The notes under the pieces: generated by a model
What the model saw: the letters and a program-made list of their open reading frames with translations, nothing else
Databases searched by the model: none
What the model was told of the DNA's origin: nothing
Shown here: one piece after another, positions 2,605 to 8,316 of the stretch
Numbering within the stretch: the stretch's first letter is position 1
Layout of the letters: each line of letters starts with the position of its first letter
Position numbers and translations under genes: made by a program
Assembly (NCBI RefSeq): GCF_056746865.1
Contig: NZ_CM163382.1
Length of the DNA: 64,000 bases
Strand: one strand, 5' to 3'

Positions 2605-4140
2605 TCAGTGGTAGTAGCCCGGACCACGCAGGTTTTCATGCTCTGAAGCATATGCCGGATGTTGTTCGCCCTGGCGGGATAATGGAAGCTCCAGGTTCTC
2701 CCGATGGTGACGCAGCAGATTGTCGATAAAGCGTCTGTCAGGGGCGTTATAGTGCAGGGCAACGTAACAGGCCTTTTCCAGCCGTTCCGGGCCGTATTTT
2801 TTCTGAAGTGCCAGCAGCCCCAGAACTGCACGATAAGCCAGTTCCGGATGGGGTTTTGCCTTCAGCATGGATTCAACCACCCGGCCTGTGGACGGGCCCG
2901 TACGTTTTCCCTGCTCGATCAGGCGTTCCGGTGTCCATGTCCCGTGCTGCCGGTGGCGCTCTGGCATGTGAAGCGGATTGGTTGTGTGTTTATATTCATG
3001 TGTGCTGCGCGGATGTTGCGCCACACACTGCCCCTTGTGCCAGAGCTGTACCACCGACTGCCCCGCCTTCAGTGACAGACGCTGACCGACCAGTTCGTGT
3101 GGAACGGAGTACCAGTGACGGGCATATTCAACGTGGTAGTCAGGGCCAACCTTCACAGCTTTGTATTCCGTGTATTCATAAGGTGCCAGAGGCAGCGGAG
3201 AGAGTGCTGGCGCATCCAGTATGCGGAAGCGTTCTGCACGGGTTTGATTGCCGTACCCCTTCATTGGCCGGTTATTCATGTCTGTCAGTAACTCCCTAAG
3301 GCGCGCATTCAGCGCCCTGAGCGTGTGGAAGGTTTCATTACGGATGCGGGCAAGAAGCCATCGTTCGACGATGAGGACGCCGTTTTCTGCTTTTGGTTTA
3401 TCTTTAGGTTTGCGTGGTCGGGCCGGGATGATAACCGTGCCATAGTGCTCAGCCAGTGCCTGATAACTGTCGTTGATGACAGGCTCATATCGATCGGCCT
3501 TTTTCACTGCGCTTCTGAGGTTATCGGGGATGAGCAGCTTCGGTACGCCGCCCAGGAAGGTCAGGCAACGGCTGTGGGCATTTAACCATGACATCATGTC
3601 CTGACCTTCGCACGCTTCAACGTAGGTATAGTTGGACGCCCCCATTACGGCCACGAAGATTGCCACGCGGCGTATCTCACCGGTGTCCGGATTAATAACA
3701 GGAACCGTAGGACCACAGAAGTCGATAAAAAGCTTTTCGCCGGCACGATGCTCCTGGCGCATGGAGAGACGTCGCGTTTTTTTCCACTCCCGGTAGCAAC
3801 GGCAGAAGTGCGAGTATCCCATCGCTTTGTTACCCGCCTGTGCCTTGTATTCCATCCACAACAGTTGCCGCGTCACACCTGGTTTTCTCATTTCCGTATC
3901 GAGGTACAACATGTCAGGCATTACAAGCTCTGATGCAAAGGTGTCTTTGGGCGGAAAAATGAGTTTCTCCAGCGTGTCATGGGATATATCAGCAGGTAAT
4001 GGCCATGACAGAGAAGAGGCTTTGAAGCGGGCAAGAACCTCAAAAACGGTTGAGGCGCTGATGTGTAACGTCAGTCCGATACAACGGTTAGTCAGCTTCT
4101 TGTCGAACTTGAGCTGAAGAATCTTAAAACAGGTTTCCAT
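2605..4140 (-). CDS. istA: IS21-family transposase IstA (HTH + DDE)
   Basis: 512-aa product from ATG at 4140 (METCFKILQ..) with AGGAG 5 nt upstream; N-terminal HTH-like region and central integrase/DDE-like region; followed 16 nt later by istB. Confidence 0.8.
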   Translation of the reverse strand: METCFKILQLKFDKKLTNRCIGLTLHISASTVFEVLARFKASSLSWPLPADISHDTLEKLIFPPKDTFASELVMPDMLYLDTEMRKPGVTRQLLWMEYKAQAGNKAMGYSHFCRCYREWKKTRRLSMRQEHRAGEKLFIDFCGPTVPVINPDTGEIRRVAIFVAVMGASNYTYVEACEGQDMMSWLNAHSRCLTFLGGVPKLLIPDNLRSAVKKADRYEPVINDSYQALAEHYGTVIIPARPRKPKDKPKAENGVLIVERWLLARIRNETFHTLRALNARLRELLTDMNNRPMKGYGNQTRAERFRILDAPALSPLPLAPYEYTEYKAVKVGPDYHVEYARHWYSVPHELVGQRLSLKAGQSVVQLWHKGQCVAQHPRSTHEYKHTTNPLHMPERHRQHGTWTPERLIEQGKRTGPSTGRVVESMLKAKPHPELAYRAVLGLLALQKKYGPERLEKACYVALHYNAPDRRFIDNLLRHHRENLELPLSRQGEQHPAYASEHENLRGPGYYH

Positions 4141-4372
4141 AGTGCTCCTGGATTTTCTCTTTCTGGACATTGACGTCTCCACTGGTTTAAACACGGCAAT
4201 GGAGACTGTGGTGAAAAGAGTTAATTCCCGGAGTGACTGGCAGGATGCCAATCAATGATCGGAAGCATGCCAAATCGTGATCGATTGTGATGCCAAACTG
4301 TGATCGGAGATGGATGCCAAATCATGATCGATTCGAATGCCAAACTGCGATCGATTCAGATGCCATTTTGCA

Positions 4373-4417
4373 GTCACCATCTGGCAGACACTGCTCACCC
4401 GGTTACTGGACCAGCAT
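4373..4417 (+). pseudogene. cbtA-family toxin gene, short continuation after the IS (..IWQTLLTRLLDQH), then unrelated sequence
   Basis: Removing the IS and one GTCAC copy restores ..PSPVTIWQTLLTRLLDQH in frame; downstream the sequence no longer encodes a CbtA-like protein (deleted or decayed). Confidence 0.6.
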
Positions 4418-5156
4418 TCCCTGATTTCCTCATCGATATCGAATAAGCACTCGTCGCAGAATTCTTTATCGAGTGAGAGCCTCTGTTCAAGGACGCTTCT
4501 TTTTTTTGTTGCAACGTGCACATCCCTTCATCTTTCCGCGCCTTTGTGACCTCGTGATTTGGGGTACATGGAAAATGGGCGTAGCAAGCCTCAGCTAGAT
4601 AACTAACCGTAATAAAAGGGCTTTTCTGCGAGCAATGTAAGAGAAGGATAACTAGGCAGGTTGCAAGAAAGATAATCGTTTTGATAGATCAGTTTATCGA
4701 TATTGATCGTTAGTGCCGATCGATAAGAAGTGCGGAAACGTTAGACTCACCTCTGTTGCTCCATCATGATGATGGGGCTGTTGGCCCTCGAATCTATCTG
4801 TCTATTAGCATCGGCATGACAAACACCATTTGTTTCCACAACAAAAGACAATAGAAAAGTACATATGTACAAAAAGTGTGATTTATTCTGTCACTTCAGT
4901 ACTTCCTTTCGCCTAAGTTTGCCCGTAATAATTCCCCGTGCAGTACTATTGTTGCGACATAACAACATGAATTACATGGTAATAATAGATGTTTTCCTCT
5001 GCTGATTCCTGTAAGGATCATGACTCCATACGACATCATTTTTAATTTTATACAGTTCAAAAAATCTACATGTGTCACAAATAATTTTACATTTGATAAT
5101 GTATAGTTGTCACATGACAAGTTGATTATCATTCTGTGTAGACAAGGAGAACTGTT

Positions 5157-6416
5157 ATGACGGATTCAATTCCATCAGGTTACAAGCCGCTGACATGTGA
5201 CACGCTGCCGGGTTATCTCTCGTCCAGACTGACCCCTTCATGCGAACCGGGAGGGTTACCTGAAGAGTGGAAAGTTTCAGAAGTGGGGGACGGAAACCTG
5301 AACATGGTGTTTATCGTTGAGGGGACACATAAAACCATCATTGTAAAACAAGCTCTGCCCTGGCTTCGTGCCGGGGGCGAAGGATGGCCTTTATCTCTGA
5401 GCCGTGCGGGCTTTGAGTACAACGTCTTATGTCAGGAAGCCAAGTACGCGGGTCACACACTGATTCCGCAGGTCTATTTTTACGACCCGGAAATGGCGCT
5501 GTTTGCCATGGAGTATCTGACTCCTCACGTGATTCTGCGTAAGGAACTGATTAACGGTAAAAAATTCCCTAAACTAGCTGAAGATATCGGCAGATTTTTA
5601 GCACAGACTCTCTTCAATACGTCTGACATTGGCATGTCAGCAGAACAGAAAAAAGCGCTTACTGCCGAGTTCGCGTTGAATCATGAGCTGTGCAAAATTA
5701 CGGAAGATCTGATCTTCACAGAGCCCTATTACAACGCTGAACGGAATAACTGGACTTCTCCTGAGCTGGACGATGCCGTCCATAAGGCCTGGGCTGATGT
5801 AGAGATGATCCAGGTTGCCATGCGTTATAAGTACAAATTTATGACAGAAGCGCAGGCATTGTTACATGGCGACCTTCATTCAGGCTCAATCATGGTGACC
5901 GACACGGATACCAAAGTGATTGATCCGGAGTTCGGTTTCATGGGGCCAATGGCGTTTGATATCGGCAACTATATTGGCAACCTCCTGCTGGCGTACTTCT
6001 CACGCCCTGGGTGGGATGCGAATGAGCAACGTCGCGCTGACTATCAGGAATGGCTGCTTCAGCAGATTGTCCAAACCTGGTCCGTTTTCACCCGGGAGTT
6101 CCGCCAGCTCTGGGACAACAAAACACAGGGCGACGCGTGGTCGACAGAAATGTATCAACAGAACAGGGCCGCTCTTGAGGACGCACAGGATCAGTTTTTT
6201 GCCACGCTGCTTGAAGATTCCCTGGTGAATGCCGGCATGGAAATGAATCGCCGGATCATTGGTTTTGCTGGCGTTGCCGAGCTGAAACAGATTGAAAATA
6301 CAGAGCTTCGCGCAGGATGTGAACGACGTGCATTGACCATGGCGCGCGATCTTATCGTCAATGCCCGCCAGTTTAAAAATATGGATTCCGTCATCCAGTC
6401 TGCGAAGGTTAAGTAA
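5157..6416 (+). CDS. mtnK: 5-methylthioribose kinase (MtnK-type sugar kinase of the APH/choline-kinase-like fold)
   Basis: 419 aa; RBS AAGGAGA 7 nt upstream; catalytic-loop LLHGDLHSGSIMV and IDPEFGFMGPMAFDIG motifs characteristic of MtnK. Confidence 0.8.
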   Translation: MTDSIPSGYKPLTCDTLPGYLSSRLTPSCEPGGLPEEWKVSEVGDGNLNMVFIVEGTHKTIIVKQALPWLRAGGEGWPLSLSRAGFEYNVLCQEAKYAGHTLIPQVYFYDPEMALFAMEYLTPHVILRKELINGKKFPKLAEDIGRFLAQTLFNTSDIGMSAEQKKALTAEFALNHELCKITEDLIFTEPYYNAERNNWTSPELDDAVHKAWADVEMIQVAMRYKYKFMTEAQALLHGDLHSGSIMVTDTDTKVIDPEFGFMGPMAFDIGNYIGNLLLAYFSRPGWDANEQRRADYQEWLLQQIVQTWSVFTREFRQLWDNKTQGDAWSTEMYQQNRAALEDAQDQFFATLLEDSLVNAGMEMNRRIIGFAGVAELKQIENTELRAGCERRALTMARDLIVNARQFKNMDSVIQSAKVK

Positions 6417-6425
6417 GAGGTCATT

Positions 6426-7541
6426 ATGAATATTAAAGGTAAACACTATCGTACGGTCTGGGTTTCCGGGGATGGAAAAGCGGTAGAAATCATCGATCAG
6501 ACTAAGTTGCCTTTTAAGTTCGAGGTGGTGGCGCTTACCTCTGCGGAAATGGCCGCTACGGCTATTCAGGATATGTGGGTTCGTGGCGCTCCGCTTATTG
6601 GTGTCGTTGCAGCCTATGGCATCGCGCTGGGAATGAATCACGATGCCAGTGACATGGGTCTGCAGCGTTACTATGACCTTCTTATCAAAACCCGACCAAC
6701 GGCAATTAATCTCAAATGGGCCCTCGACAGGATGATAGACACACTGAAGGATCTCTGTGTATCAGAGCGCAAGGATGTGGCCTGGGCGCTGGCGGCAGAA
6801 ATTGCCGAGGAAGATGTCGCGTTGTGTGAACAAATTGGATTACATGGTGCAGAAGTCATCCGCGAAATAGCCCAGAAAAAACCGGCCGGGAGTGTGGTCA
6901 ATATCCTGACACATTGTAACGCAGGCTGGCTGGCGACTGTAGACTGGGGAACCGCGCTTTCTCCCATCTACAAAGCGCATGAAAACGGAATCCCTGTTCA
7001 CGTCTGGGTGGATGAAACGCGGCCACGTAATCAGGGCGGACTCACGGCATTTGAACTGGGCTCACACGGTATTCCTCACACCCTGATCGCCGACAACGCG
7101 GGTGGCCACCTGATGCAACACGGTGACGTTGATCTCTGCATTGTTGGGACCGATCGAACCACGGCCAGAGGGGATGTCTGTAATAAAATTGGTACCTATC
7201 TTAAGGCGCTGGCGGCCCATGATAACCATGTTCCCTTCTACGTCGCGTTACCTTCTCCCACTATTGACTGGACTATCGAGGACGGAAAAAGCATTCCGAT
7301 TGAGCAACGTGACGGAAAAGAGCAGTCCCATGTCTATGGGATAAACCCTCAGGGAGAATTGAGCTGGGTCAATACCGCCCCTGAAGGAACCCGTTGTGGG
7401 AACTACGCTTTCGACGTCACGCCTGCCCGATACATTACCGGCTTCATTACTGAGCGGGGAGTCTGTGCTGCCAGTAAGTCAGCGCTGGCGGATATGTTTG
7501 CTGACCTGAAGAGTAAAGCACTCCAGGGGGAACAGCATTAA
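6426..7541 (+). CDS. mtnA: S-methyl-5-thioribose-1-phosphate isomerase (MtnA, eIF-2B alpha/beta/delta-like family)
   Basis: 371 aa; 9 nt after mtnK; eIF2B-like fold motifs ([31 protein letters not shown]). Confidence 0.8.
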
Positions 7542-7571
7542 AACAGCGGCCATTGCTATTAAGGATCAGGA

Positions 7572-8213
7572 ATGGAACGGATTAAGTTAGCAGAAAAAAT
7601 CATTTCCACTTGTCGGGAAATGAATGCGTCAGGTCTTAATCAAGGAACATCAGGTAATGTGAGTGCCAGGTATACCGGTGGCATGTTGATTACGCCGAGT
7701 GGGATCGCTTATTCAAAGATGACGCCGGACATGATTGTCTTTGTAGACGATAAGGGAAAACCTGAAGCGGGTAAAATACCATCAAGTGAATGGTTAATTC
7801 ATCTGGCGTGTTATAAAGCCAGACCAGAATTGAATGCTGTCATACATACGCATGCGGTGAATTCCACGGCGGTGGCAATACATAATCATTCAATTCCGGC
7901 CATTCATTATATGGTGGCGGTATCGGGGACGGATCATATTCCCTGTATTCCCTATTATACCTTTGGCAGTCCTGAACTGGCCGACGGTGTATCTAAAGGA
8001 ATCAGAGAAAGTAAGTCCTTGCTGATGCAGCACCACGGTATGCTGGCCATGGACGTCACGCTGGAAAAGACGTTGTGGCTGGCGGGTGAAACCGAGACGC
8101 TGGCTGATTTATACATCAAATGTGGCGGATTACATCACGATGTTCCCGTGCTGTCTGAAGCCGAAATGACCATCGTCCTTGAAAAATTCAAAACGTATGG
8201 TTTGAAAGCGTAA
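7572..8213 (+). CDS. class II aldolase (FucA-like); candidate 5-methylthioribulose-1-P / 5-deoxyribulose-1-P aldolase
   Basis: 213 aa, very similar in length and sequence to L-fuculose-phosphate aldolase (MER.KLA..II.TC.EM...GLNQGTSGNVS..., HTH.. metal-binding histidines); directly follows mtnK-mtnA. Confidence 0.75.
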   Translation: MERIKLAEKIISTCREMNASGLNQGTSGNVSARYTGGMLITPSGIAYSKMTPDMIVFVDDKGKPEAGKIPSSEWLIHLACYKARPELNAVIHTHAVNSTAVAIHNHSIPAIHYMVAVSGTDHIPCIPYYTFGSPELADGVSKGIRESKSLLMQHHGMLAMDVTLEKTLWLAGETETLADLYIKCGGLHHDVPVLSEAEMTIVLEKFKTYGLKA

Positions 8214-8316
8214 TTACAGCTTTATTTTAATTAATAACATATGACAGCCATTCGCAGAATGGCTGCTATTCCCTCTGTCCACAACGATTGATTATAACTA
8301 CCACAAGGAGTTATTT

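Follow-up and report, generated by a model that had tools for sequence, protein, structure and literature searches.

The window, that is the whole stretch of 64,000 nucleotides analysed here, originates from an Escherichia coli of the extraintestinal pathogenic type, and a 2-kb query around the hairpin that is the subject of this analysis was 100% identical to many E. coli chromosomes. The hairpin lies between the last two of four consecutive genes, which are followed by a convergent regulator gene:

5157-6416, + strand: mtnK (RefSeq annotation)
6426-7541, + strand: mtnA (RefSeq annotation)
7572-8213, + strand: ald2, a class II aldolase gene annotated as L-fuculose-phosphate aldolase, the cistron upstream of the hairpin (RefSeq; operon membership, PMC12632272)
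8211-8213, + strand: TAA stop codon of ald2
8317-9321, + strand: gene of a GRP-family sugar transporter (putative permease), the last cistron of the operon (RefSeq; PMC12632272)
9326-9349, both strands: terminator-like hairpin in the gap between the transporter gene and convergent mtnR, with the clearer T-run on the - strand (terminator scan)
9362-10348, - strand: yjhU (= mtnR), the convergent regulator gene (RefSeq annotation)

The genes mtnK, mtnA, ald2 and the transporter gene form a single operon for the DHAP shunt, or 5'-deoxynucleoside salvage (Huening et al. 2025, PMC12632272). This pathway allows extraintestinal pathogenic E. coli, including ST131, to grow on 5'-deoxynucleosides, and the regulation of the operon has so far been studied at the promoter only (PMC12632272). 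The primary start site, P1, is located 72 bp 5' of mtnK, and all mapped starts are upstream of this gene; YjhU, renamed MtnR, is the repressor of the operon and acts at P1, and CRP is required for expression (PMC12632272). All four genes are induced by 5-deoxyribose with similar fold changes (~7.5 log2), and the RNA-seq read depth, as judged visually, is similar over mtnK, mtnA, ald2 and the transporter gene (PMC12632272). The hairpin at 9326-9349 is likely to be the true end of the operon transcript. No stem-loop, hairpin or any other feature of the ald2-transporter spacer is mentioned in that study (PMC12632272), and the RefSeq records hold no annotated feature beneath the hairpin.

The spacer between ald2 and the transporter gene is composed as follows:

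8214-8316, + strand: the 103-nt spacer, from the ald2 stop to the ATG at 8317
8214-8244, + strand: variable, A+U-rich linker from the ald2 stop to the hairpin
8245-8265, + strand: hairpin CAGCCATTC-GCA-GAATGGCTG, with a perfect 9-bp stem and a 3-nt loop
8266-8279, + strand: variable, pyrimidine-rich and G-poor linker 3' of the hairpin, CUAUUCCCUCUGUC, without a U-tract
8280-8316, + strand: conserved block with the Shine-Dalgarno (SD) sequence AAGGAG (8305-8310) and a predicted SD-sequestering hairpin (8294-8314)

A preliminary description of this DNA had reported the perfect 9-bp stem with its 3-nt loop in a 103-nt spacer, which is exact as read from the sequence, and the lack of a T-run 3' of it, which also holds, the + strand tail reading CTATTCCCTCTG. 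As RNA, the arms read CAGCCAUUC/GAAUGGCUG around the loop GCA, and positions 8244 and 8266 form an A.C mismatch in the window where relatives have a 10th pair (G-C or A-U). The calculation of folding energy that had been suggested was run and gave -13.1 kcal/mol for the hairpin alone. The spacer as a whole folds at -19.6 kcal/mol, compared with -11.8 +/- 2.6 in dinucleotide shuffles (z = -3.0; equalled by 2 of 200 shuffles), and in a 281-nt context every stem pair forms with a probability of 0.98-1.0. Distinct perfect 9-bp stems number 9 in the 64-kb window, against ~1.9 expected from Markov simulations. As a perfect 9-bp stem is unremarkable in 64 kb, the case for the hairpin rests on the comparison with relatives.

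Orthologous loci were collected by tracing transporter homologues of at least 84% identity to their contigs, all of which showed the mtnK-mtnA-ald2-transporter / mtnR arrangement. Scans of a genome collection and of metagenomes added Citrobacter and near-E. coli variants and otherwise returned unrelated contexts; P0007 and P0012 yielded no further lineage, and the transporter homologues of 72% identity or less adjoin PfkB kinases and have no homologous spacer. Six independent lineages were thus available: the E. coli/Citrobacter clade (7 alleles), Providencia rettgeri, Klebsiella oxytoca and three designated L007, L008 and L019.

Across six alleles of the E. coli/Citrobacter clade, 19 of the 103 spacer columns vary, and none of these is among the 18 columns of the stem. 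By region, the variable columns amount to 11/31 upstream of the hairpin, 2/3 in the loop, 6/14 downstream and 0/37 in the block preceding the transporter start. The probability of an invariant stem is 0.017 with all columns of the spacer counted and 0.0007 with the invariant 37-nt block excluded. The loop occurs in the clade as GCA, GCG, GUG or GAG. The seventh allele (L031, found in 14 E. coli genomes) was read separately and carries 5 changes in 35 nt with the stem intact. The palindrome was found in 1,232 of 5,426 E. coli genomes, at one place in each and always at the DHAP-shunt operon. A dispersed repeat of the REP/BIME type was considered and rejected, as was an operator with a partner site, since the palindrome and its half-sites are single copy everywhere (the window, the fetched loci and the 5,426 E. 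coli genomes).

Between genera, only 0.30-0.40 of the four-fold degenerate sites of the transporter gene are identical, which corresponds to saturation. At this distance, the hairpin is found in P. rettgeri as GCAGCCAUUU-UAUA-AAAUGGCUGC (-14.9 kcal/mol), with the top pair changed from C-G to U-A, and in L019 as GGCAGCCUCU-GCC-GGGGGCUGCU (-16.5 kcal/mol), with a rebuilt top consisting of U.G, C-G and U.G; the stem base GCAGCC/GGCUGC is common to E. coli, P. rettgeri and L019. In L008 the 5' arm persists, but as part of another, larger structure that is stable and occupies the corresponding place (spacer z = -1.95). The hairpin is degenerate in K. oxytoca (-3.8 kcal/mol on the + strand) and L007, whose spacers fold no better than their shuffles (z ~-0.5), which indicates that the element is dispensable or turning over. 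Where it is kept, the hairpin lies 22-31 nt past the ald2 stop and 46-51 nt before the transporter start, the E. coli values being 31 nt and 51 nt. The linker 5' of it is A+T-rich in most lineages and unalignable between them, and a CCUCU-like tract recurs on its 3' side in other lineages. The conserved half-stems are separated by 11, 12 or 9 nt, and the loop varies freely in sequence, which fits a structural role and not sequence-specific recognition.

Formally, the covariation support for the stem is weak to modest. In the alignment 94.9% of the cells pair and two pairs change on both sides; the observed score was reached in 29 of 500 shuffles, and the covariation term given by RNAalifold is close to zero. 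That the stem is non-random is apparent from the comparative data and not from the stem itself. From these data we conclude that purifying selection preserves the stem as a structure, in the majority of lineages though not in every one. The earlier proposal of an intra-operon RNA structure is thereby strengthened, the stem being invariant against a varying loop and flanks and re-paired in the distant lineages P. rettgeri and L019.

The same description had held that the hairpin is not a terminator, and we reach the same view. It has in common with a Rho-independent terminator that it is a stable, G+C-containing hairpin (9 bp, -13.1 kcal/mol) soon after a stop codon, but it differs from one in lacking both the U-tract and the transcript drop. 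The tail reads CUAUUCCCUCUG, the + strand terminator scan returned nothing at this place, and the tract is absent in every lineage; read depth is similar over the four genes, which are induced together (PMC12632272). Because the published depth is similar on both sides, the hairpin is not a strong attenuator.

Other kinds of element were searched for in the same region. A search of 4000-11000 against Rfam 15, up to E = 10, gave three chance matches to snoRNA models, none of them within the spacer. No internal sigma-70 promoter was predicted in the spacer; the -10-like TATAAC at 8293-8298 is without a -35 element and reads TGTAAC in one natural E. coli allele. A small ORF of 16 codons that runs across the hairpin (8241-8291; MTAIRRMAAIPSVHND, then a stop) lacks a Shine-Dalgarno sequence, and close relatives have ATA in place of its ATG, so that it is probably not translated.

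As the four genes form one operon whose starts are upstream of mtnK, the hairpin is transcribed inside the mRNA. It is thus a stable structure at a cistron boundary within a polycistronic transcript, and it is kept in the E. coli/Citrobacter clade, P. rettgeri and L019, replaced by a different structure in L008 and lost in K. oxytoca and L007. We tentatively favour, at somewhat less than even chances, the reading that it is a functional structure of the sense-strand polycistronic mRNA, which would mark a decay boundary without stopping transcription. By analogy with malE-malF or papBA, it would most likely protect part of the message as an intercistronic hairpin. Examples of such structures, both 3' and 5', have been documented in E. 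coli operons, and Dar & Sorek found them conserved in 75-91% of shared cases (PMC5927463).

Two arrangements may be envisaged. If the hairpin is of the malE-malF type, RNase E would cut in the single-stranded spacer or in the transporter cistron, and the hairpin would act as a 3' cap that halts 3'-to-5' exonucleases (PNPase, RNase II), so that the enzyme-coding segment would be protected. If it is of the papBA type, RNase E would cut in the A+U-rich linker just 5' of the hairpin, which would be left as a 5' cap and protect the transporter segment. The linker at 8214-8244 may be single-stranded and serve RNase E as a place of entry or cleavage. RN|WUU-like sequences can be seen by eye in the E. 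coli 5' linker, although this motif (PMC5927463) is too degenerate to count as evidence.

Like malE-malF and the structures of Dar & Sorek (PMC5927463), the element is a stable stem-loop without a U-tract just 3' of the upstream cistron; it is conserved in several orthologous operons, and soluble products are encoded upstream and a membrane transporter downstream. It differs from malE-malF, whose element consists of dispersed REP repeats, in being single copy, in being rather weak (-13 kcal/mol) and in that the reported steady-state coverage is similar on both sides. With the papBA 5' stem-loop of uropathogenic E. coli, where RNase E cuts 5' of the hairpin (PMC5927463), it shares the A+U-rich single-stranded stretch on its 5' side and a strong terminator that closes the downstream cistron (here 9326-9349); it differs in that it lies 51 nt from the start codon and that cleavage by RNase E is a possibility here. 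Many protective structures are more stable than this hairpin with its -13 kcal/mol. In the Rhodobacter capsulatus puf operon, hairpins between cistrons are decay barriers that set the stoichiometry of the products; the puf hairpins occur in another organism with another set of RNases and are structures of much greater size, and their effect on half-life has been shown experimentally.

Similar hairpins are not restricted to this spacer. In four lineages the spacer between mtnA and ald2 also contains hairpins, of -16 to -21 kcal/mol and unrelated sequences:

3699-3758 of the P. rettgeri locus (L012): hairpin in the mtnA-ald2 spacer
2189-2248 of L008: hairpin in the mtnA-ald2 spacer
2201-2260 of L019: hairpin in the mtnA-ald2 spacer
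2194-2253 of L007: hairpin in the mtnA-ald2 spacer

They are found a few nucleotides past the mtnA stop, directly 5' of the ald2 Shine-Dalgarno sequence, and are lacking in E. coli (equivalent positions 7542-7571) and K. oxytoca. This layout suggests translational coupling or a decay barrier, and the occurrence of these hairpins shows that intercistronic hairpins are a general habit of this operon family.

The preliminary description had proposed that the structure could set differential stability or translation of the permease message, and it had named two observations that would speak against this, equal transcript abundance across the spacer and lack of conservation of the stem in related loci. 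The abundance is indeed roughly equal, judged visually from the published data (PMC12632272), but the stem is conserved in most lineages. Given the similar coverage, likewise judged visually, and the similar fold changes, an effect on differential stability, if any, is modest or condition-dependent; the loss of the hairpin in K. oxytoca and L007 also speaks against a large effect. If the hairpin is a decay barrier, the ratio of the enzymes to the transporter would be set partly after transcription, which would represent a routine but undescribed layer of control, relevant to the engineering or quantification of this operon. The findings leave the current understanding unchallenged.

The part of the spacer next to the transporter gene is strongly conserved and is more puzzling than the hairpin. 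The 37-nt block at 8280-8316 shows a single change in L031, A8294G, a natural variant in which the SD-sequestering helix is retained through a G.U pair. Over its last 45 nt, the spacer shares 80-82% identity with those of P. rettgeri and L008 despite an identity of 0.30-0.38 at the four-fold sites, and the first 14 coding bases of the transporter gene (ATGTTTATCGTGGA) are nearly invariant in all lineages; the start region of ald2, in contrast, is conserved at the SD only. This block, more than the hairpin, could hide a control of the transporter at the level of translation.

It is possible, although unlikely, that the hairpin forms the 5' part of an extended leader which controls translation of the transporter, together with the block, the anti-SD-like pyrimidine tract at 8270-8276 and the SD hairpin. 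The amount of transporter made would in that case be adjusted separately from the enzymes, perhaps upon a signal from a protein or a ligand. Such a leader is suggested by the start-adjacent block, which is conserved far above neutral sites, by the nearly invariant 14 coding bases and by the contrast with the ald2 start; moreover, the SD is predicted to be mostly paired (unpaired probability 0.17), RNAalifold proposes a long helix around the SD and AUG, and in L019 an 8-bp pairing with the SD is predicted for the tract directly 3' of the hairpin. Several results weaken this reading. When the 5' arm was shuffled in silico to disrupt the stem, the accessibility of the SD and AUG was unchanged, so that a direct effect of the hairpin on translation is unsupported. 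The hairpin is also parted from the block by a variable linker, the start region folds no better than its shuffles (z = -1.4), no Rfam family matches, and there is no covariation in the SD/AUG helix, because its sequence hardly varies. That the hairpin, the block of 37-45 nt and the 14 coding bases together constitute one cis-regulatory RNA sensing a protein or a small molecule is a very improbable extension of this idea. If it were true, a 5-deoxypentose or a 5'-deoxynucleoside derivative would be the candidate ligand and translation of the transporter would be gated apart from that of the enzymes; this would be a hitherto undescribed switch between cistrons, MtnR and CRP, the pathway's other regulators, acting at the promoter only.

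Two further features of the transporter start region were observed. The mtnK leader and the ald2-transporter spacer have two 8-mers in common, TTGATTAT and ACAAGGAG. The first is not conserved in other genera; the second constitutes the ribosome-binding site of both mtnK (5142-5149) and the transporter gene (8303-8310) and resembles the CsrA binding consensus (ACA-GGA). In L007, a tandem duplication at 2980-3075 comprises the ribosome-binding site and first codons of the transporter gene (CCACAGGGAGTTATTAATGTTTGTCGTGG, then CCACAAGGAATTATTTATGTTTATCGTGG), as a result of which the gene caller began the protein 20 codons early.

A palindrome without present function could have arisen by chance as an inverted repeat, or it could be what remains of a former terminator whose U-tract disappeared as the transporter gene became part of the operon. 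About two 9-bp stems are expected by chance per 64 kb, the hairpin has decayed in K. oxytoca and L007, and the transcript level does not step down across it, all of which speaks for such a palindrome. Against it stand the depletion of variation in the stem when compared with the loop and the flanks on either side (P = 0.0007 to 0.017) and the survival of the stem base and of compensated top pairs across lineages with saturated four-fold sites, and we consider a functionless palindrome distinctly unlikely.

Attenuation within the operon is to be considered as well, the hairpin being transcribed in an untranslated stretch, 31 nt past a stop codon, and followed in every lineage by a segment that is C-rich and G-poor by base count. 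The hairpin could be a leaky intrinsic terminator or a pause hairpin before a putative Rho loading tract (8266-8305), Rho being loaded on the C-rich, G-poor tract when the transporter is poorly translated. Both the leaky terminator and the loading of Rho have little probability in our judgement, as a U-tract is lacking in all lineages, the + strand terminator scan is empty, and read depth and induction ratios are similar on either side.

On the - strand, the hairpin could serve as a terminator for antisense transcription that has crossed the transporter gene, such as read-through from mtnR, and so keep it out of ald2. The terminator scan gave a weak match on this strand, GCAGCCATTCTGCGAATGGCTGT followed by CATATGTTAT, and in K. 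oxytoca the hairpin is stronger on the - strand than on the + strand (-10.7 vs -3.8 kcal/mol) and is followed by UUAUUUUUGA. K. oxytoca is the only lineage that lends this role support, which is weak. The - strand tail is poor in E. coli, P. rettgeri and L008 lack it altogether, and owing to their G.U pairs the + strand folds much better in L019 and L008; assignment of the strand by G.U pairs is consequently contradictory, pointing to the + strand in L019 and L008 and to the - strand in K. oxytoca. Furthermore, a good terminator for mtnR is already present at 9349-9326, and no promoter-like site was found on the - strand between 8300 and 9350. A - strand terminator thus has only a slight chance of being the function of the hairpin.

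Finally, it is most improbable that the 9-3-9 palindrome is a DNA operator for a dimeric regulator such as MtnR (YjhU): it is perfect in E. coli and the recognition sequence of MtnR has yet to be defined (PMC12632272), but no similar sequence is present at the regulated P1 promoter or in the rest of the window, each operon that keeps the palindrome has it once, in the ald2-transporter spacer and never near a promoter, the gap between the half-stems varies (11, 12 or 9 nt), L019 has other sequence in the inner half of both arms and relies for its pairing on G.U pairs, which do not exist in DNA, and repression by MtnR maps to P1, 3 kb upstream (PMC12632272).

Additional observations concern the remainder of the locus. 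The spacer and the transporter gene are disrupted in some E. coli genomes: in strain SW4848 the spacer match ends at ~8298 and a second matching place is found elsewhere in the same record, in strain UPEC-774U the transporter gene is split by an IS3-family element, and in L030 its 5' end is replaced. These are insertions or a replacement affecting ~8298 and the gene at 8317-9321. The P1 region of mtnK (5072-5125) contains the sequence TGTCACA twice, at 5073-5079 and 5110-5116, the second copy being located within the near-palindrome TTGTCACATGACAA, and the segment ACATnTGTCACA...TTTTACAtTTGATAATGTATA of this region is kept in Citrobacter, Klebsiella and Providencia; the TGTCACA and ACATnTGTCACA...TTTTACAtTTGATAATGTATA sites are candidates for the MtnR operator. 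The intergenic region between mtnR and yjhF contains a perfect palindrome at 10507-10545, ATACTGTAAAGCCGGAG-ACATG-CTCCGGCTTTACAGTAT, with a 17-bp stem that folds at ~-28 kcal/mol on either strand.
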